From a virus (taxonomy: Duplodnaviria > Caudoviricetes), in IMG/VR virus record IMGVR_UViG_3300001838_000086, positions 1 to 58,154 of that record: a DNA stretch of 58,154 bases. One strand, given 5' to 3'. The number at the start of each line of letters is the position of its first letter. Position 1 is the stretch's first letter. The notes beneath the pieces were generated by a model, which had not been told where the DNA came from, ran no database searches, and saw nothing but the letters and a program-made list of their open reading frames with translations. A program made the translations under genes and the position numbers. Positions 15,122-46,125 of this stretch are shown here, piece after piece.

Positions 15122-15685
15122 TTATGGGATTGCTCTAGAATAGAGTTTACCTTCTAATGCCATCTTATACATTTCTGCAACGTATGGGTTTTCACTTGGA
15201 GTTTCTGCACCAAGTTCAACCAGTCTAGCATACACTCTGACTACATAAGCCAAAGCACCCATGAAGGCAACTACAACTCCCATATTGAACATCCAATGGT
15301 TAGGCACTGCAAATATCTCTTCTACAAACCAAAAGTGCCACATTTCGTTAACACCAATGGTAAACATGGTTGCAAGATAACCTAGTATAGTCATCTTTAA
15401 TCCAGTGTTCATAGAGTTTCCTACACCTCTCAATATTGGTACTTTACGATCATAAATCGCAACACTACCCCAACCTAGAGGTAATGCTATGAAATGACTG
15501 TATAACCACCAATGAGCTGGTGTAAACGCAGAGTCCCTAATAGATGTTTGATGAAGTGAACCATCAACAAAGTTATCAACCTCTACAGAAGCAGCGGTTG
15601 ATCCCATCGCAATTACAATCAACCAAATTTTCTTCAGTCGTTGTATTTCCACTTCTTTTGGAATTAAGGCTGGAATCTGTGCCAT
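15122..15685 (-). CDS. amoC: ammonia monooxygenase subunit C (archaeal), auxiliary metabolic gene
   Basis: 187 aa MAQIPALIPKEVEIQRLKKIWL...EGKLYSRAIP, closely matching archaeal AmoC; D-x3-H-x12-H metal motif intact. Start taken as ATG 15685 rather than track start 15775. Confidence 0.97.
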   Translation of the reverse strand: MAQIPALIPKEVEIQRLKKIWLIVIAMGSTAASVEVDNFVDGSLHQTSIRDSAFTPAHWWLYSHFIALPLGWGSVAIYDRKVPILRGVGNSMNTGLKMTILGYLATMFTIGVNEMWHFWFVEEIFAVPNHWMFNMGVVVAFMGALAYVVRVYARLVELGAETPSENPYVAEMYKMALEGKLYSRAIP

Positions 15686-15737
15686 ATATACCATTAGTAT
15701 ATTAATTATATAAGTTTTAATTGTGACTAATGAGTAT

Positions 15738-16070
15738 TTAAGGATGTGGTGATGTTGAACATATTGGTTGAACATTCAGTCTTCGTTTTTTCTGATAGTA
15801 TTCTCTTTGATATTGTTTTATCTTATCCTTGTTTTCCTGATAGCGTTTTCTTTGAGATTCGTTTATTCTGTCCTTGTTTTCACGATTGTATTTTCTTTGA
15901 TACCTTCTTTGATATTCTTGTAACTTTTCTCTCATTTTATGATTGTTATAATATCTAAATAGGTGTCCACAGTTAGAACTACAAAACTTTTTTTTCTTAT
16001 AGTCGTTACATACATCACTTATTTCACTTTTACAATATAAACATCTTTTGATTGTTCTTTTCGATGACAT
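15738..16070 (-). CDS. Zn-finger / basic helical-repeat protein (resembles HNH N-terminus, no nuclease domain)
   Basis: CLYC...KKFCSSNC followed by YQR(E/K)Y repeats; ATG 16070 downstream of a TTATATA box. Confidence 0.6.
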   Translation of the reverse strand: MSSKRTIKRCLYCKSEISDVCNDYKKKKFCSSNCGHLFRYYNNHKMREKLQEYQRRYQRKYNRENKDRINESQRKRYQENKDKIKQYQREYYQKKRRLNVQPICSTSPHP

Positions 16071-24744: not shown

Positions 24745-24942
24745 TTAAATCCTAATGTAGAGTGAGGTCACGGCTTGTTTCGAGCCTAAGTGTTTATTCA
24801 AGACAGAAGCCTTGATACACTTTTGGTCGTGACCGCTCTTAGATACTTCAGTTTCTATGAAGTGAAGCACTTCAATGAGAGCATTCGCAAAGTTCTCGAA
24901 TGCTTCATCTCGTGCACTTTCATAGTCGAGTGCAGAAGTCAT
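24745..24942 (-). CDS. putative immediate-early protein
   Basis: Preceded on the minus strand by the AATCAAACCG + TATA motif (~24965-24987). Confidence 0.65.
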   Translation of the reverse strand: MTSALDYESARDEAFENFANALIEVLHFIETEVSKSGHDQKCIKASVLNKHLGSKQAVTSLYIRI

Positions 24943-25067
24943 AATATATCAAATACAGTAATAGTATATAACATCATCGGTTTGATTAGGATATGATAGA
25001 TTATTGCAAAGTCCTCACACCAGACCCGCCTTGAATAAGGGTTATTAAAGGTTATACTCATGCCTGT

Positions 25068-25095
25068 GATAATCAAACCTATGAGGTTATATAGT
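25068..25095 (+). promoter_or_regulatory. early promoter motif GATAATCAAACC-N-TATA (also at ~25538, ~25873, ~26737 on + and ~24987 on -)
   Basis: Five copies, each followed by a TATA-like box and a start codon or RNA 5' end roughly 20-30 nt later. Confidence 0.7.
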
Positions 25096-25115
25096 ATGAT
25101 AACACTAGGTATAAC

Positions 25116-25460
25116 ATGACTTCCACAAGAAGCGATATAGTATTTGATAACACAACATCAAAGGCTATCTCGGCACTAACTGAGATTCAAAACTATCTCG
25201 AATACGAGTTAGATTTGATTCAGGCATCACTAGAAGGATTGAATTCCTTTAACATTGATACTGAATCCGTCTTGGATAAAGTATCAACATTAGTGCATGA
25301 CTTAAGCGATTTGAATGGTCGTCAAAACACTGAGTTTACTCATGCTTTGGCAGTCGCTTTCAAGAATGTCTTGCACTTGGAAAACTTCTGGGAAGATGAA
25401 TCGAATTGGGAAGGTCTGTCTGCTAAGCAATATCTTGGCAGTCAAGACCTTTATTCCTAA
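25116..25460 (+). CDS. acidic helical early protein
   Basis: 114 aa; own promoter and downstream T-tract. Confidence 0.7.
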   Translation: MTSTRSDIVFDNTTSKAISALTEIQNYLEYELDLIQASLEGLNSFNIDTESVLDKVSTLVHDLSDLNGRQNTEFTHALAVAFKNVLHLENFWEDESNWEGLSAKQYLGSQDLYS

Positions 25461-25575
25461 ACTCTTTTTTTTATTATACTAACCATAACCTTTATCTACC
25501 CTTGTTTTGTACGCCGCCTTATATACTATGCCTATATGATAATCAAACCGACAGTATTATATGCTATGATGGATA

Positions 25576-25776
25576 TTGAGAAGTATGAATGAGCCAACTA
25601 CAAGATACAAGGAAACTTGTGGGCATATCTTTGTTTGCCCCAAGTGTGACACTCCTCTAATTGAGGATAAGAGGGCAAGAATGGAAACTAACACAAAGTA
25701 TGTCAAGTTCTATAATTGCCCCCATGATCATTCGTTTATCGAAACTTGGTCAAGGACAAACTTTGAGGAGTTTTAA
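25576..25776 (+). CDS. Zn-ribbon early protein
   Basis: CPKC...CPHDH; own promoter and T-tract. Confidence 0.65.
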   Translation: MRSMNEPTTRYKETCGHIFVCPKCDTPLIEDKRARMETNTKYVKFYNCPHDHSFIETWSRTNFEEF

Positions 25777-25918
25777 CCCTCTCTTTTTATTGTGCTATCA
25801 TAACCTTTAACTACCCTCATTATAGAGCAACCTTTATATACCCTTAGTTGTACGCGGGCGATTAGGCATATGGATAATCAAACCGATAGTGTTAAATAGT
25901 ATTATGGGTATTAGTAAT

Positions 25919-26253
25919 TAGTCAAGTAGTTCTGCTACTTGATTAGGGTAAAGTGGGTTTCTGATATTTCCCACTGTTTTCAGGCTTTAGAGAGTTGAAG
26001 CACCCGATAACTCTCAACTTAAAGTAATGGAGCTCTAGGTGGGTGGAATGACACCAAGGGCGGGCACACGAAAGAGGCAAGGAATGATTTCTGACAGAAA
26101 AGGGCTTCTTATCAGTGTGATAAGAACTGTTGTATGGTATGCAACAGAGCCCGCTACAAAGATAAGAGCTACAGCCAAAAGGCACAAGAACGAGGCGTTT
26201 ACAGCGTAGGCTATGGCTTACGGAAGTATAGGCACGCCTACCATTACTTTTTT
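25919..26253 (+). ncRNA. candidate ~330-nt highly structured non-coding RNA
   Basis: Early promoter upstream, T6 tract downstream, no credible ORF, many nested stems including AAAGTAATGG (26021-30) / CCATTACTTT (26241-50). Confidence 0.65.
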
Positions 26254-26265
26254 ACTATTCGCCCT

Positions 26266-26567
26266 AACCTTTATATACCGTTATTATTGACATACTCCAA
26301 CAACAACCTTTATATACCCTTATTCCAGACCAGAACCTTTATATACCCTCAGTTCGAACATAACCTTTATATACCGTCACTTTAGAGTTGTACACGCGAT
26401 TCGTGGTGGGGTGGCGATACCTTTATATACCGTTAAAAAAAAATAAAAACCTTTATATACCCTTGTATGAGCCATAACCTTTATATACCCTTGCTATGCC
26501 CATGTAGGCTATATATAGGTTTCGGTCTATTGTATAAAAAAAATACGATAGAAACCTTAATATACCG
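26266..26567 (+). repeat. array of AACCTTTATATACC(C/G) direct repeats (BRE-TATA-like / iteron-like)
   Basis: Copies at 26266, 26305, 26334, 26362, 26418, 26448, 26476, 26553; inverted variant ~26508-26522; further variants at 25487, 25802, 25829, 26709. Confidence 0.9.
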
Positions 26568-26780
26568 TTGGCGGTGCTGTATAGTATAGTATTCTAGGAA
26601 TCAATCAGATCTATTATATGACAATATTATTGTGAGTATAGTTATTGGTGTGTATTATAGTGGTTATAGTGATTATGTATGATACTGACTACGGGTTAGC
26701 GGGTGCGAAACCTTTATAAGCCCTTGTTTTTGCCGAAATCAAACCGAAGGCTTTAATAACTTTGACCGCGCAAAATCGCC

Positions 26781-28073
26781 ATGCCCCAAAGCATAACCGA
26801 CCAAACGGCAAACACAGAGAGCACCATTGTTTTGAATGAGGGTGAACGTATCCTTAATGGTGTCAATGGTTTGCAAGATGTATATTATAGGTCTCCAGAC
26901 CTATATCTAACAATGGAACGAACCGAAGAAGGTTTACTTCTATTCCTTAGAAGTGAATTCCTTGCTAGATATATATTGGAACATGGAACAAATCCAACAT
27001 TCTATGGTAGTAGATACCAACTCACTAGAAATAGTGTAGGTATGAGTGAAGATAATGGGTTTGTTAGATATATCCCAGCTCGTATATATAACAATAGAGT
27101 TCGTGGATATATAACTATACCATTCCACAATGTCTTATATGATATGAGTGATGGTATGGTAATAAACCAACAAGAAAGAGAAAGAAATGCTAGAAATTTC
27201 TCTAGGGGTGTACAAGTATTGTATACTCAACCAATACCTGAGACCTCTTTCAGAACAATTCGTATTGATATTCTGAGAGGATATGAGGAATTTATTAGAG
27301 ACATACAACGTGAATACATGTCTACTCATAGTGGATATAACTATCCATTAGTTAATCTCTCTATGAAATCAATACCACGAAAAAAGAATGGCACATTTAT
27401 AAAAGATGGTGTCATCTACAAAAAGATAACAGCTGTTAATACAGTAGCAGTTGAGTTCGAGGGATTCTGGTTTGATGGACATGTCCCAGATGGTGTGTAT
27501 AGTGATTGTAGTGTATCAAATGGACTACGACCTAGATGCCAATGTGAAGATAGAGATGCATGTCCCTCATGTAATGGTGTAATAGGTGAAGCAACTAGTG
27601 GCATATGCACACCTGATACCATAGATGAATGGATGGGATTGAATCACCCAGATAAAGTTGATGCATCATGTGGTATGCATGTACATGTAGGATTCAACAA
27701 TGACCTGTTAGCATACAGTAAACTCATGACACCTACATTCCATAGATACTTCCTCAAACGATTCAATGATTGGGGTAAGCGTATGAATATCAATGAGGGA
27801 TCTAGGTTCTGGGTAAGAATGCAGGGGCAGAATAGATTTGCTATGGATAAATTCCGTGCAACAAAACAATACCTCATGACACACAAAAGCGTAGAGAGAT
27901 ATACATTCCTCAACTTCTGTTGGGGTCTGCATGGAACATTAGAGAATCGTATGCTACCTATGTTCAATGAGTCACGAATAGCTGTGAGTGCAGTACATGA
28001 GTTCATTGATATAGTGAATTCATATCTAGCAGAGAACATAGATGAAGCATACTCTTACGAGGTGGTAGCGTAA
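26781..28073 (+). CDS. putative amidoligase (COOH-NH2 ligase, Amidoligase_2-like)
   Basis: VAVEFEG, D.S, CGMHVHVG, RYTFLNF, GTLENR motifs. Confidence 0.8.
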   Translation: MPQSITDQTANTESTIVLNEGERILNGVNGLQDVYYRSPDLYLTMERTEEGLLLFLRSEFLARYILEHGTNPTFYGSRYQLTRNSVGMSEDNGFVRYIPARIYNNRVRGYITIPFHNVLYDMSDGMVINQQERERNARNFSRGVQVLYTQPIPETSFRTIRIDILRGYEEFIRDIQREYMSTHSGYNYPLVNLSMKSIPRKKNGTFIKDGVIYKKITAVNTVAVEFEGFWFDGHVPDGVYSDCSVSNGLRPRCQCEDRDACPSCNGVIGEATSGICTPDTIDEWMGLNHPDKVDASCGMHVHVGFNNDLLAYSKLMTPTFHRYFLKRFNDWGKRMNINEGSRFWVRMQGQNRFAMDKFRATKQYLMTHKSVERYTFLNFCWGLHGTLENRMLPMFNESRIAVSAVHEFIDIVNSYLAENIDEAYSYEVVA

Positions 28074-28075
28074 AC

Positions 28076-28903
28076 ATGTGCGTTATCATTCTCTGTGAGA
28101 GAGAGTTTCCTAGTGTAGATACCTTGAAGAGTGCCGAAGCTATGAATGGTCATGGTGGTGGTATTGCTTGGGTAGATAAAACAGGCAAGGTTATGTATCA
28201 TAAAGCTCTAGGGGCTGATGAGATACAACATATAATAGAAACAGAAGCACAACTACCAGCCATAGTTCACTTCCGTATCGCTAGTATTGGTCATGTGAGT
28301 GATGAGTTATGTCACCCATTCCCAATCACAGATGATAGTGAGGTGTCTCTTAGTGGTGAGTGTGATAGTGTTCTATTCCACAACGGAACGTGGGGTGAAT
28401 GGGACACTCATCTATTGAGTGCAATCACTAGTGGTAAATTACCCATGCCAAAAGATACCAAGCATATGTCAGATAGTAGATGTATGGCATTACTAGCTAA
28501 CACATATGGTAAGAACATTCTTAACCTGATAGCTGGTAAGTCAAATAAAATTGCAGTGCTATCTATCAATGGCATAGAGAAGTTTGGTGAAGGCTGGGTC
28601 ACACACAAATCTAATACATGTAGCAACGACTACTTCGTAAAGAGAGAGACTGTGTTTACCTATGACCCAATGAGTAAGGCATACTCATATACAATAGCCA
28701 ACAACGACAACACACAACACCATAACAAGAAGAAGAAAAAGAAAGGTAAGAACAAAACCTTTCAAGATTATTCTTGGAAAGATTGGGAGTATTCCCTTAA
28801 CAATGGTAAAGACAATGACGTTGATAAAGACATGGCTATTAGTAATGCATATGATGAGTATTGTTCCATGTATGATAAGATGTATGAAGGTGGTCAACAA
28901 TGA
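28076..28903 (+). CDS. class II (Ntn) glutamine amidotransferase
   Basis: N-terminal MC nucleophile, NGHGGG, HFRIASIG, CHPF, FHNGT, SDS. Confidence 0.88.
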   Translation: MCVIILCEREFPSVDTLKSAEAMNGHGGGIAWVDKTGKVMYHKALGADEIQHIIETEAQLPAIVHFRIASIGHVSDELCHPFPITDDSEVSLSGECDSVLFHNGTWGEWDTHLLSAITSGKLPMPKDTKHMSDSRCMALLANTYGKNILNLIAGKSNKIAVLSINGIEKFGEGWVTHKSNTCSNDYFVKRETVFTYDPMSKAYSYTIANNDNTQHHNKKKKKKGKNKTFQDYSWKDWEYSLNNGKDNDVDKDMAISNAYDEYCSMYDKMYEGGQQ

Positions 28904-29178
28904 ATAGCACACAAATGATAGTTAACGCATTGATAGAGGCTGATAGTAAACTCTATTCATATCAATGTCCATACCTAGCACTAGCAGATGTGCTAGGTTA
29001 TATAACGCCTCAATGTATCCATGCTTTACCATCAAGATTTGGTCGCATATCTACCAAGCGTATGCTATTAAATTATGGGGTAGGTATAGCTAAGGCTAGT
29101 ATGATATGGAAGATGTTAGAGCATGGATACACATTAAAAGAAATAGCAGAAAAAATTAGGAGTGATGAATATGATTAA
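28900..29178 (+). CDS. hypothetical protein (HhH-like GVGIAKA)
   Basis: ATGA-coupled ORF. Confidence 0.55.
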   Translation: MNSTQMIVNALIEADSKLYSYQCPYLALADVLGYITPQCIHALPSRFGRISTKRMLLNYGVGIAKASMIWKMLEHGYTLKEIAEKIRSDEYD

Positions 29179-29365
29179 GAGAATAGAACCAACACTATAT
29201 CAGGCAGACAGTAAGTCTGACCCTGATCATAGTCATATCATATATCTAGATACCACTACTAATGAATGGATATGTGATTGTATCGGATATAAATACAGAC
29301 AGAGTTGTAGACATATCAAAGAGATACTATTAGATATAGGAGAAAAGAAAAATGAAACAAGTTAA
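29171..29365 (+). CDS. SWIM Zn-finger protein
   Basis: W.CDC.G..YRQSCRHI (CxC-xn-CxH). Confidence 0.8.
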   Translation: MIKRIEPTLYQADSKSDPDHSHIIYLDTTTNEWICDCIGYKYRQSCRHIKEILLDIGEKKNETS

Positions 29366-33158: not shown

Positions 33159-33526
33159 TGTTGAGTTGTGACTATGTGCCAAAAGAAGATGCCATTGAGT
33201 ATTGTATAGAGAATCACGAGGAAGCTATGATAGATGCTGTAAGAGAACACTATCGTAAAGAAATAATAAGCGACCTAGTGACATACAATAGAGATGAAGT
33301 TGTCAAGGCACTAAATCAAACCAAAACGCTTAAGTATAGGATATGGTATAAGAAAACATTGAAGCAGACAGGAATGCCTATCTGCGTACAAGATGTAGCC
33401 ACAGGTCTTATAACCTTTACTAACGAATTTAAGTTAGAGGGTTGTGAAATAAGAATCGCCTTTGAGAATTCTCATGGTGCTTCTAAAGCTTGTGGGGCAA
33501 CGACTATATTAGAGGTGTATGTATAA
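33155..33526 (+). CDS. hypothetical protein
   Basis: Coupled ORF. Confidence 0.6.
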   Translation: MMLSCDYVPKEDAIEYCIENHEEAMIDAVREHYRKEIISDLVTYNRDEVVKALNQTKTLKYRIWYKKTLKQTGMPICVQDVATGLITFTNEFKLEGCEIRIAFENSHGASKACGATTILEVYV

Positions 33527-34437
33527 TGAAATCGAAAATGAAAGAGACACGAATAGAAATCCCAACACAGACTATAAACTTCGAGCAGTACGACCCAAGA
33601 AACCTTGTTAATTGGGGTGAGTATATAGAAGTTGGTGATGAGATGAAACTTCTAGAGATGAACATCAAAGAAGCTTCAATCCCATATATTATAGAAGGTG
33701 ATAAAGGGACAGGCAAAACCCTAATGGTGCATACAATATGTAGGAAAAACGGATATGCTCTATTAGAATACAGTTGTTCTAATGGAACAAACAAAGGTGA
33801 CTTGATAGGTAGAGTTCAGATAAATGAGAATGGCTCATTCTTTGAACTAGGTATACTACCACTAGCCTATGAGATAGCAAATCACTTTGGCTTCTGTGTT
33901 CTATATCTTGATGAACTAAATGCAACAGAGCATGAGGTCATGAAGTTAATGAACAGACCAACAGATAAGAGGCGTTCTGTATTTGCCAATGGAAAACTAT
34001 ACAAGCTCAATGAGGGTTGTAAGTTAGCCATAGTGGGAACTATGAATCCACTAACATATGCAGGGGTTAATTCTCTAACAGAGGATTTGAGAAGTAGATT
34101 CATAGGTGATATAATCACATACCCAACATCAAAGCAACTACAAACAATCATATCTTGGGAAGGCATACCAGAGGAATCTGTGAAGAATCCTTTGCTACAA
34201 TTAGCACAAGAGACAAATGCATTGAGAGTCAAGGGTGATATAGATTATGTCTTATCGCCTAGAGATATTGACCAATTCTGTGAGCACTATCGAATACTCT
34301 CTAAGAGTAAAAAGTTTGAAGAGCCACAGGTATTGAAGTATGCATTGAAACAAGTTGTCCTTGTTAAGTATGCAGAGCTAGAAGAAAGAGAACTAGTCAA
34401 ATCTAGAATAGTAGATATATTCGGAGTTGAAATCTAG
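33526..34437 (+). CDS. MoxR/CbbQ/NirQ-family AAA+ ATPase
   Basis: Walker A GDKGTGKT, DLIG, Walker B LYLDELN, GTMNP, LRSRF, SPR. Confidence 0.9.
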   Translation: MKSKMKETRIEIPTQTINFEQYDPRNLVNWGEYIEVGDEMKLLEMNIKEASIPYIIEGDKGTGKTLMVHTICRKNGYALLEYSCSNGTNKGDLIGRVQINENGSFFELGILPLAYEIANHFGFCVLYLDELNATEHEVMKLMNRPTDKRRSVFANGKLYKLNEGCKLAIVGTMNPLTYAGVNSLTEDLRSRFIGDIITYPTSKQLQTIISWEGIPEESVKNPLLQLAQETNALRVKGDIDYVLSPRDIDQFCEHYRILSKSKKFEEPQVLKYALKQVVLVKYAELEERELVKSRIVDIFGVEI

Positions 34438-36159
34438 ATGGCACGAGATAGAGAAATACTCTCAGATAAAGAAATGATGAGAAGTGTTCTAGATATTGTA
34501 GAGTATCTAAAGGATTGTAAGGTCGGTATAACATTCTTTAGTGGTGAAAACTATGTAAAGAATACTATCGAAACCCCCAACATTTTTACTATTAATATAG
34601 CTACGCCAGCAATACCAAACATTGACAAGTATACAGCGTTAGCTCATGAGTGTGGACACATATTAGGTGAGACACCTATGAGTGCATGTAAGAAGTTATT
34701 AAATAGATGGGTAAAAGAATTCAAATATAATGATGGGACAACGCCATTAGTTAAGAGACTATACTCTTATTATTTCTCATGTTTTAATGTGATAGAAGAC
34801 CAGAGAATAGAATACTATGTAGCTAATTATCTATGGCGAAATTACATAAAGAAGTTTAACACGACAAGACGAAAGCTTGGTGAAGATATGCAACATGCAG
34901 ATAGTCCTATTGAATGGTTATTAGCAGAGAGATTCATAAGACCTGAACTAGTTCCTAATGAACATAAGGAAATAATTTCAAGTGTTATAAAGAATGTGCA
35001 AGGCACTAGTAAGTGGGGGGCATTAAAGATGATGGTCATTCTAAAGCCCATACTAGATGAATGGTTTAAGAGAAACTATGAACTCATAAATGAAACGCCT
35101 ATAATCCCAGAGACATTCGGTAATGAGAGAACAGCTGAACACATTAGACAAGACATACAAAATGCTGGTAGACAACATGATGATAGTGAGATGGAACTAA
35201 CTGATGACTTTGGTGAAGACATAAAAGAGATGATGGCTAGTGGTAGTAGTATTGAAGAGATACTTTCAGATGATAAGCAACAACAGGCATATGAGATAGA
35301 AGAACTACAAGAAAGAATGTCACAGATAATCAAACCACAGTTAAGAAGAGAGTTCAAATATGTGGATAGAAAAGCAGTAAAGACTGAGATAAGATACAAT
35401 CATGATTTAGCTCTTGGTCTTAACAAACTATTCAGAAAAGTTAGTGAGAAGTGGAAAGATGACATTGATTATACAGGAGAGGAAGTTAGTGTTGAAACAT
35501 ACATTGAGAACTTGGTGCAGGGTAAAGATAGAACTAAGTCAATGGTCTCAAAGAAATTAGATAAGGGTCTATCAATACTATTATCAATAGATGCTAGTGG
35601 GTCAATGGACTTCTTAGATAAGATAGATAATGTGAGGGCACTAGTGAAGACTCTATACAAATCAATAGAAAATATAGATAACATAAATCTTAGTGCAGTT
35701 GTCTGGTCATCAGATAGCAACGGTATAGTTGGCATACAACACATAGATAGTATAAAAGATATAGAAAAGATAGCGACTATCGGTGGGTCAAAACTAACAC
35801 CAACTCATCTTGCATTAGAATATTCTTCAGAAAAACTAATGAAGATGAAAGGTAGAAAGAAGTTATTGATAATGATAACTGATGGTATACCAGAATATAG
35901 AAGTAATCAGTTTCTTATACCAATAGGAAACATGATTAAGATGTGTAAGAAGTCTTATGCTTATGCAAGACGAAAGACACCCAACATGGTATGCTTGTTA
36001 ATATCAGATAGGTCATCATCAAGAACTAGAAACACTTCACCATATACAATCATGAAACAAATCTTTGGCAAAAAGGTTATAAATTGTAGTAATGTCAATG
36101 ATGCAAGTGAAAGAGTTATTAAAGAGTTCAAGTTTAATGTATTGAGGGCACTACAATGA
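34438..36159 (+). CDS. VWA (MIDAS) domain protein with N-terminal HExxH, CobT/NorD-like partner
   Basis: LAHECGH, FNVIEDQRIE, DASGSM, TPT, ITDG. Confidence 0.88.
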   Translation: MARDREILSDKEMMRSVLDIVEYLKDCKVGITFFSGENYVKNTIETPNIFTINIATPAIPNIDKYTALAHECGHILGETPMSACKKLLNRWVKEFKYNDGTTPLVKRLYSYYFSCFNVIEDQRIEYYVANYLWRNYIKKFNTTRRKLGEDMQHADSPIEWLLAERFIRPELVPNEHKEIISSVIKNVQGTSKWGALKMMVILKPILDEWFKRNYELINETPIIPETFGNERTAEHIRQDIQNAGRQHDDSEMELTDDFGEDIKEMMASGSSIEEILSDDKQQQAYEIEELQERMSQIIKPQLRREFKYVDRKAVKTEIRYNHDLALGLNKLFRKVSEKWKDDIDYTGEEVSVETYIENLVQGKDRTKSMVSKKLDKGLSILLSIDASGSMDFLDKIDNVRALVKTLYKSIENIDNINLSAVVWSSDSNGIVGIQHIDSIKDIEKIATIGGSKLTPTHLALEYSSEKLMKMKGRKKLLIMITDGIPEYRSNQFLIPIGNMIKMCKKSYAYARRKTPNMVCLLISDRSSSRTRNTSPYTIMKQIFGKKVINCSNVNDASERVIKEFKFNVLRALQ

Positions 36160-45566: not shown

Positions 45567-45809
45567 ATGGCAAGGCGTAAAATTGGTAACTCACATACAA
45601 CTATCAGTATTAGTTGGGCTGATAAGGAAGAGTTTAGAAAATTAGCCAAACTAGTTAAGAAGACTAGAAACGGTGATATGTATGAAAGTGATTCCGTAAT
45701 CTTCAAAAGAGTATTAGATCACTATAAAGCAACTAGTAATGATACTGGTTCTACTGCACACCCAACTTACCCTGTTAAGGTTTCTCCAGCACATGACCAG
45801 CAAGGTTAA
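45567..45809 (+). CDS. RHH-like DNA-binding protein
   Basis: HTTISIS..helix..ESDSVIFKRVL. Confidence 0.55.
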   Translation: MARRKIGNSHTTISISWADKEEFRKLAKLVKKTRNGDMYESDSVIFKRVLDHYKATSNDTGSTAHPTYPVKVSPAHDQQG

Positions 45810-46125
45810 ACTCTCTGGGTATCCATCTTATTTTTATTTTATTAGTCATCATTGATTGACATTTTTCCCATAGTGGTAGAAGTGATTCAGTAGTAACTCT
45901 CCATTTACCATTCATCTGTTTTACTACAAGCATAGAATCTGAACATATTTCTACATCAGCACACTTGTACTTGTCACGAATATAACCAAGTGCATACATT
46001 AGGGCTAGGTATTCAAGTTCATTATTGGTTGGCTTACCACCCCTATATTTTACAGCGACATGAGTGCCATCAACCATGCATATATTGGAGTGTCTTGTAC
46101 CACCATCTATATAAATCTTAACCAC
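45775..46125 (-). CDS. ribonuclease HI-like protein
   Basis: IDGG, TNNELEY, SDSMLVVKQMNGKWRV, WIPREFN. Confidence 0.88.
   Translation of the reverse strand: MVKIYIDGGTRHSNICMVDGTHVAVKYRGGKPTNNELEYLALMYALGYIRDKYKCADVEICSDSMLVVKQMNGKWRVTTESLLPLWEKCQSMMTNKIKIRWIPREFNLAGHVLEKP

Follow-up and report, generated by a model that had tools for sequence, protein, structure and literature searches.

Adenovirus VA RNA I and the EBERs of Epstein-Barr virus are viral decoy RNAs, which act in trans on host proteins. Y RNAs and YrlA, the partners of Ro60/Rsr, occur in some phages. 6S RNA is an abundant regulatory RNA with a terminal helix and titrates a core machine of its host. The phi29-type packaging motor uses an RNA ring instead of the classical terminase pair. 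Ammonia-oxidising archaea are drivers of nitrification in marine and fresh waters. What is known of their tailed viruses comes almost entirely from metagenomes, and these viruses have been examined gene by gene for proteins such as amoC. The titles and abstracts of the literature found mention no structured or non-coding RNA of thaumarchaeal viruses.

Here we analyse a tailed-virus record of 58,154 bp, the whole of which is called the window. The region 25920–26253 of its + strand very probably encodes a member of a real, autonomous family of structured non-coding RNAs. The RNA resembles VA RNA I and the EBERs in being encoded by a virus, in its length of at most a few hundred nucleotides, in the terminal stem formed by its 5' and 3' ends, and in its oligo-U end. 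As in these RNAs, a conserved module, which binds protein in their case, lies beside variable parts. VA RNA I and the EBERs are, however, eukaryotic Pol III transcripts and have no sequence or structure homology to this RNA; the analogy would be one of design only.

Similar to Y RNA and YrlA, the RNA has a closing helix made of both termini, a modular build and a U-rich 3' end. Unlike in Y RNA, the closing stems are the most variable parts here, and the conserved module is a side hairpin. There is no match to Rfam. The TROVE domain (PF05731) is found in none of five records searched, which are three viruses and two Nitrosopumilaceae genomes, while the Deinococcus and Bacteroides controls match. 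With neither a TROVE protein in these five records nor a conserved binding site in the closing stem, a Y RNA-Ro60 ribonucleoprotein was rejected. 6S RNA is likewise closed by a terminal helix, but the RNA described here has no Rfam match and no long central bubble, and contains a junction with side hairpins instead. The RNA family is new, while viral structured non-coding RNAs as a broad idea are already known. What is new is the family itself, its host domain and its cassette-like mobility.

The virus and its promoters

The window looks complete, with an estimated completeness of 93%. Its genes include those for portal, tail-tube and large terminase (TerL, with Terminase_6N and Terminase_6C domains), MCM helicase (E 1e-78), RadA/Rad51 recombinase, an RNase H-like protein and amoC. 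The RVT_3 match at 45775–46125 corresponds to the RNase H-like domain. The AmoC protein is 83–97% identical to those of Nitrosopumilaceae genomes. Based on these sequences, the host is an ammonia-oxidising archaeon of the Nitrosopumilaceae. The amoC gene is at 15122–15775 (−), within the structural-gene block. It is also seen in two relatives, G001 and G187, and was not detected in G034, G011, G014, G020 or G030.

TerL has more than 400 close homologue clusters, 72–90% identical, on contigs of 55–66 kb. Among GenBank phages, its best match is Halogranum tailed virus 1 with 31% identity, and blastn of GenBank phages gives no match. The virus group is large and known only from metagenomes. A pair of genes at 33490–36159, encoding a MoxR-like AAA_5 ATPase and a VWA-domain protein, is conserved in all eight related genomes compared. 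A cassette at 26781–29365 contains a 430-aa Cys/His-rich protein, a weak GATase_6-like protein, a 92-aa ORF and a small CxC...CxH ORF. It may resemble phage amidoligase/amidotransferase cassettes, and its 430-aa protein amidoligases, a likeness to which Pfam and PHROGs give no support; neither database returned anything useful for the neighbour proteins. The 430-aa protein has only four relatives in 5.8 billion sequences. A metagenome scan with it recovered only G001, whose protein is 36% identical.

In archaeal promoters, the TATA box lies about 25–30 nt before the start of transcription. These rules were applied to the window because the AmoC identity, together with MCM and RadA, points to an ammonia-oxidising archaeon as the host. 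The promoter copies in the control region 24965–26759 and the predicted transcript are as follows.

25876–25898 (+): promoter of the RNA; AATCAAACC (25876–25884), 7-nt spacer, TATA-like TTAAATA (25892–25898)
24965–24987 (−): promoter copy, ORF start at 24942 (−)
25071–25093: promoter copy, ORF start at 25116
25541–25563: promoter copy, ORF start at 25585
26737–26759: promoter copy, ORF start at 26781
25920–26253 (+): whole predicted transcript, 334 nt; start by promoter spacing, end by the T6 tract and an RNA-library contig

The pattern AATCAAACC-N7-TTWWWTA has six matches in the window, against 1.18 expected, and none of 100 shuffles reaches six. Five of them are the copies listed above. The sixth is at 33314, inside an ORF. 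At the four ORF-linked copies, the A of the ATG is 28 nt (25585 and 26781) or 29 nt (25116, and 24942 on the minus strand) past the first T of the heptamer. This spacing implies the geometry of leaderless archaeal mRNAs. Since the offset is taken from these four copies, the start at the fifth would be A25920, 28 nt after the TATA-like box. A first-pass annotation, made from the letters alone, had placed the start at 25919, one base away, and had described the element as a copy of an early promoter. The element is present; the word "early" is read from the promoter type.

Fold, homologues and covariation

The first-pass annotation described a GC-richer stretch with no credible ORF and a T6 end, and listed nine stems. 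It also suggested several checks: an Rfam search, a folding z-score against shuffles, homologues tested for covariation, and metatranscriptome read ends near 25920 and 26250. The G+C content of 25920–26253 is indeed 44.6%, versus 35.1% in the window and 36–37% in the flanks, and the T6 tract lies at 26248–26253. The + strand folds with a minimum free energy (MFE) of −110.6 kcal/mol and a z-score of −4.47, and none of 100 shuffles folds as well. The reverse strand of the region gives z −2.64.

Seven of the nine stems are seen in the MFE or centroid fold. These are the 5' hairpin, AGTGGG/CCCACT, AGCTCT/AGAGCT, GCGGGC/GCCCGC, AAAGTAATGG/CCATTACTTT, CTGTTGTA/TGCAACAG and, in the centroid fold only, GAGAGTT/AACTCTC. 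For TTCTTATCA/TGATAAGAA, the MFE fold prefers a competing pairing. GTAGGC/GCCTAC was paired wrongly: the partner of GUAGGC is GCUUAC, and covariation supports the hairpin that the two form. The two long-range stems, called P1 and P3 below, are both confirmed by compensatory changes; the other stems lie in lineage-specific sequence, which has no comparators.

Close homologues, in loci L002, L003 and L131, are 97% identical to the window over 25829–26780, and their RNA differs at only 1–2 of 335 nt. All three carry A26031G, which turns an A-U pair into G-U and keeps the pairing. BLAST of the RNA against the distant relative G001 aligns 55 nt of the 3' part (E 3e-8), and a two-block pattern from this match led to six viral contigs. 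A model of the 3' domain, R1, was run on 31 related records drawn from 50 loci, which are 49 of 59 terminase loci plus L127; L155 and L159 (known RNA carriers), L162 and seven loci at 29% identity were left out of this set. It returned two matches, G034 and a new, more divergent one, G007. A sharper pattern scan of viral sequences found only the seven records already known. The homologues collected amount to eight viral records of five sequence types: the window type, G001, G187, G034 and G007. R1 scores 62–98 bits across the members and 90.4 bits for the window.

Four complete related genomes (G011, G014, G020 and G030), whose TerL is 64–73% identical, contain no R1 match at E <= 1. They also give no match to a structural descriptor, which recovers the window, G001, G187 and G007, misses G034 and has four chance matches in 45 shuffled genomes. 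Because these four complete relatives lack the RNA, it is dispensable for the virus group. In host lineages, R1 gives one chance match of 20.6 bits in five Nitrosopumilaceae genomes, and none in 151 genomes of the family and 151 of the class (307 host-lineage genomes altogether). The exact pattern has no match in a species-genome collection. Looser DNA-pattern scans gave chance matches only, as checked by blastn or by eye.

No known RNA class was recognised. Rfam 15 has no match in the whole window at the gathering score, none within 25919–26253 even at E <= 10, and none at the homologues in L126, L213 and L212 at E <= 5. ARAGORN finds no tRNA or tmRNA gene in the window. The reverse transcriptase domain PF00078 is found in none of five RNA-positive virus records, while the controls match. 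A retron or another RNA associated with reverse transcriptase was rejected, there being no such enzyme in these records.

All five types, each folded alone by MFE, share one plan. In the window its parts are as follows.

25920–26020 (+): 5' extension; three hairpins at 25920–25945, 25952–25975 and 25990–26015 (MFE and centroid)
26021–26030 (+): P1, 5' strand; 10 bp with 26241–26250, of which 6 have double compensatory changes in five lineages
26031–26036 (+): P3, 5' strand; pairs with 26165–26170, stacked on P1 with no unpaired base; double changes at 3 of 7 aligned pairs
26042–26055 (+): P2 hairpin; 4-bp stem, 6-nt loop GAAUGA, G-C closing pair
26056–26164 (+): variable central arms, for example the hairpin 26127–26147; A-rich linker before P3; unalignable among homologues
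26165–26170 (+): P3, 3' strand; followed by the conserved ACA (26171–26173), which is ACAG or ACAU in all five types
26188–26240 (+): conserved 3' domain; GAACG, helix AGGCGU/ACGCCU (26193–26198/26234–26239), 3-bp helix, 8-bp hairpin, bulge, unpaired A
26203–26223 (+): 8-bp hairpin of the 3' domain, with the loop UAU (26211–26213) in the window
26241–26250 (+): P1, 3' strand; runs into the T6 terminator tract at 26248–26253

In the family as a whole, the terminal helix consists of P1 (6–10 bp) and P3 (5–7 bp), continuous on the 5' strand and followed by a joiner of 4–6 nt. Next is P2, a small hairpin with the 6-nt loop RAWWGA closed by G-C. Its stems are GGUG/CACC, CUCG/CGAG, UGUG/CACA and AGAG/CUCU, and the loop is kept in all five types. 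Variable arms of 41–132 nt follow and end in an A-rich linker, and then come the 3' strand of P3 and ACA. Downstream of ACA are a short linker ending in (G/U)AACG, the 3' hairpin domain, one unpaired A and the 3' strand of P1. The tail is U-rich except in G034, where it is UACAAC. The window shows every feature of the family: P1 and P3, the RAWWGA loop of P2, ACA, the R1 domain and the U-rich end. The 100-nt 5' extension is seen only in the window lineage and is absent from G001, G187 and G007. The length of about 330 nt given in the first-pass annotation holds for the whole predicted transcript, and the conserved part is the 233-nt core 26021–26253. Its fold has z −5.5 in the window and from −2.5 to −6.4 across the five types.

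In the 3' domain, 98.8% of cells in the alignment are paired, and double changes occur at 5 of 17 pairs. Covariation scores 0.259 there and 0.101 in shuffles, none of 500 of which reaches the observed score, and slid controls are near zero. P1, P3 and P2 were tabulated from the own fold of each type, because MAFFT mis-aligned the 5' half. For the alignment, positions were counted from the junction or the loop, and one hairpin of G034 was set into the family register by hand. All 92 of 92 cells are paired, a figure partly built in by taking helices from each type's own fold. Double changes are seen at 12 of 21 pairs, while the shuffle mean is 6.2 and none of 1000 shuffles reaches 12. Altogether 17 of 38 base pairs have compensatory double changes, distributed over the 3' domain, P1, P3 and P2; the statistics are thin, since only five sequence types are independent. 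In P1 and P3 taken together, 9 of 17 aligned positions vary by double changes, and in P1 only the two G-C pairs at the junction are invariant. Read from the opposite strand, several of the conserved G-U pairs would become C-A, which indicates that the + strand is the functional one.

The outer six-pair helix of the 3' domain never varies in the five lineages. The 5-nt bulge UAGGC of the domain retains AGGC in four of five types, and the fifth has CAAGCC. Because this one helix is invariant while all others covary, recognition by sequence is suggested, most simply by a protein.

The conservation is not that of a protein gene. Three + strand ORFs of 56, 83 and 25 aa lie over the region, and the first two could be read as a small coding gene. 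They are not kept among the homologues, where the region is absent or unalignable. By tblastx, similarity is limited to some 60 nt in the 3' domain; it is equally visible in each of the six frames, and there is no frame-specific signal. The indels in the loop of the conserved hairpin are 1 nt, not multiples of three. The statement that the stretch has no credible ORF agrees with these facts, and a small protein-coding gene is almost certainly not the explanation.

Transcripts and genome positions

Among the runs listed, 20 contain sequences of 25600–26800; they represent 11 studies and may include the source itself. Six of these runs, from two studies, are RNA libraries. Contigs over the RNA locus are present in all four RNA-library runs examined, from both studies; such contigs reveal neither the strand, nor the level, nor the true ends of a transcript, and DNA may be present in RNA libraries. 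The strong point is run X15, where a 314-nt contig spans 25963–26253 and continues with T and 22 A, which are absent from the genome. This non-templated tail marks the 3' end of the RNA exactly at the end of the T6 tract, 26253, and the end anticipated near 26250 is thereby seen. The mean contig depth in X15 is 2.7 upstream versus 54 on the RNA, a ratio unusable for ranking genes. In X16, from the second study, the contig is 25959–26318 and runs beyond the terminator. Relative to the window, it carries C26091G and, after 26095, an inserted AT; the change falls in an unpaired segment of the variable arms. A natural variant of the RNA therefore exists. The X13 contig (25748–26210) spans the promoter from the upstream gene, and that of X5 (25611–26761) passes through the U-tract into the iteron array described below. 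These contigs imply a degree of read-through, out of the upstream gene and beyond the U-tract, or some processing. The uncovered stretches 24900–25186, 25474–25610 and 26762–26822 coincide with promoters and carry no evidential weight. At 25465–25473, an RNA-library contig covering the 25116 ORF stops at 25473, past a run of T8, with a loose end that folds back; this points to another transcript whose 3' end lies at an oligo-T tract.

At the 5' end, the expected start near 25920 is not what the contigs show. Two of them, from two studies, begin at 25959 and 25963, in the loop of the second 5' hairpin. These starts may reflect 3'-biased library coverage or processing. If they mark a cleavage site, the RNA could be a ribozyme or self-processing RNA, and the invariant nucleotides in junctions and bulges could be understood in the same way, or as parts of a structural RNA of the virion or of packaging like phi29 pRNA. 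Similar to phi29 pRNA, the RNA is phage-encoded, has paired termini and a three-way junction, and follows an early-type promoter. The putative cleavage site, however, lies in the extension that other lineages lack. Rfam contains no matching ribozyme or pRNA, even at E <= 10. Unlike phi29, the virus encodes a classical large terminase with Terminase_6N/6C, and the four complete relatives are without the RNA. A ribozyme or packaging RNA is thus given little probability.

The contigs 25748–26210 and 25611–26761 bridge the RNA and the gene upstream, a small zinc-ribbon ORF at 25585–25776. The region could accordingly be a structured 3' UTR, or a processing or stability element, of this gene. In the window, G007 and G034, the RNA is preceded on its own strand by a small Cys-rich ORF. 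Against such a cis element, a complete promoter of the mRNA type lies between the ORF and the RNA. The same promoter spacing would place the start 0–1 nt before P1 in G187 and G007, and 6 nt before it in G001 (by eye). The three upstream ORFs are not detectably related, the ORF of the window has no tblastn match in the relatives, and G001 and G187 have a different gene upstream. These facts leave the cis element only a slight chance. A riboswitch or cis leader was rejected as well: the downstream neighbours differ at all three genome positions of the RNA, and they have their own promoter or are convergent.

These positions were compared by tblastn over eight whole records. In the five lineages, the RNA gene is found at three different places with no common neighbour. 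In the window it lies between the zinc-ribbon ORF and the iteron array. In G001 and G187 it is placed after a denV-like gene, with transcription directed away from the A-rich tract. In G007 and G034 it is located between homologues of window genes near 36.2–37.1 kb, and no iteron array is adjacent. Promoter, RNA and U-tract make up the unit at each position, and together they move from one genome position to another. Because it occupies three positions, the RNA is taken as autonomous and probably trans-acting, and not as an origin primer or a leader.

The 3' domains of G001 and G034 differ at only 2 of 56 nt. In TerL, the window is 89% identical to G001 and only 72% to G034. The similarity of the 3' domains means either a very strong constraint on sequence and pairing, or an exchange of the cassette between viruses.

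An array of eight iterons starts 14 nt beyond the end of the RNA gene in the window, and is followed by an AT-rich tract at 26575–26690.

26267–26570: iteron array; ACCTTTATATACC, eight copies with a spacing of 28–77 nt

The array together with the AT-rich tract is a candidate origin or regulator-binding array. ACCTTTATATACC has 11 matches in the window at one mismatch or fewer, against 0.42 expected. Single iterons are seen at 25488, 25830 and 26700, and an inverted copy near 25034–25055; each control-region promoter has a single copy about 43 nt upstream of it. The iteron core TTTATATA itself resembles an archaeal TATA box. The same iteron occurs in L007, and a related one in G001. Between an iteron and the promoter of the RNA is another motif, GTTGTACGCGRGYGATTAGGC (25849–25870), which is also present in the distant relative G001 (L006, 2645–2670). 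Variants of TTGTACRCG recur beside iterons in G001, G187 and G034. A protein probably binds at the GTTGTACGCGRGYGATTAGGC motif, within the early control region.

The adjacency raises the question whether the RNA serves an origin at 26267–26690, as a primer, by forming an R-loop or as an activator of transcription. Two RNA-library contigs, 25959–26318 and 25611–26761, enter the array, and the virus has genes for MCM and for an RNase H-like protein. In the window, the promoter and structured RNA beside iterons and an AT-rich tract are reminiscent of origin transcripts such as ColE1 RNA II, the T4 ori R-loop RNAs and lambda oop. Unlike in these origin transcripts, one contig of the RNA stops before the array, at the U-tract and with an A-tail, and both termini are locked in P1. 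The first-pass annotation placed the RNA directly before the repeat array; this is correct for the window lineage, and in the other four (G001, G187, G007 and G034) the adjacency is not found. Besides, the single iterons upstream of ordinary promoters indicate that the iteron is not specific to an origin. An origin-linked RNA is therefore very unlikely.

A possible protein-binding role

The first proposal from the letters, a non-coding RNA of the virus that is multi-branched, has its own promoter and ends in a U-tract, now has the support of the fold, the homologues, the covariation and the RNA-library contigs. Among the functions then listed (decoy, scaffold, ribozyme, replication primer), decoy or scaffold is favoured, and the primer is the least likely, its proximity to the array being limited to one lineage. 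Because the gene is mobile, action in trans is favoured over that of a cis leader, a UTR or an origin primer. We consider it an evenly balanced proposition that 25920–26253 is an autonomous gene for a trans-acting, protein-binding non-coding RNA of Nitrosopumilaceae tailed viruses. The specific mechanism of a stable protein-binding decoy or scaffold falls slightly short of that balance.

In the favoured reading, the RNA would act in trans as a protein decoy or as the scaffold of a ribonucleoprotein. The clamp of P1 and P3, which pairs both termini over 15–17 bp, would provide stability and protection from exonucleases. The 3' hairpin domain might be a sequence-specific handle for a conserved protein of the host or the virus, and the central arms would be free to vary by lineage.

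Another trans-acting role is that of an antisense regulator, whose loops or variable arms pair with mRNAs and alter their translation or decay. The autonomy of the gene would suit it, and the variation of the central arms among lineages is what targeting modules could show. Complementary targets in the viruses' own genomes do not exceed chance (the best are 11–13 nt, E >= 0.05), and the complements of two invariant 13-mers occur in five host genomes at the level of the reversed-pattern control. Moreover, the most conserved part is a closed helix and not a single strand. An antisense role is considered unlikely.

The decoy reading can be extended, with more doubt. The RNA could be the first takeover RNA of an archaeal virus, whose 3' hairpin mimics the natural RNA or DNA ligand of a conserved Nitrosopumilaceae protein and titrates this protein early in infection; this is a tentative idea, and less probable than the protein-binding role itself. 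The titrated protein might be a factor of transcription, translation or RNA decay. DNA motifs upstream of the promoters, which the hairpin might mimic, show no consistent pattern. If true, the RNA would be an archaeal counterpart of decoys of the VA, EBER or 6S type, in a self-contained cassette exchanged among distantly related viruses of an abundant ocean microbe. The near-invariant hairpin of 55 nt offers a defined handle for finding the partner, and a route into the reprogramming of the host by the virus. Only one ORF of the window, of 92 aa at 28900–29178, tracks the presence of the RNA across three RNA-positive and four RNA-negative genomes, possibly by chance.
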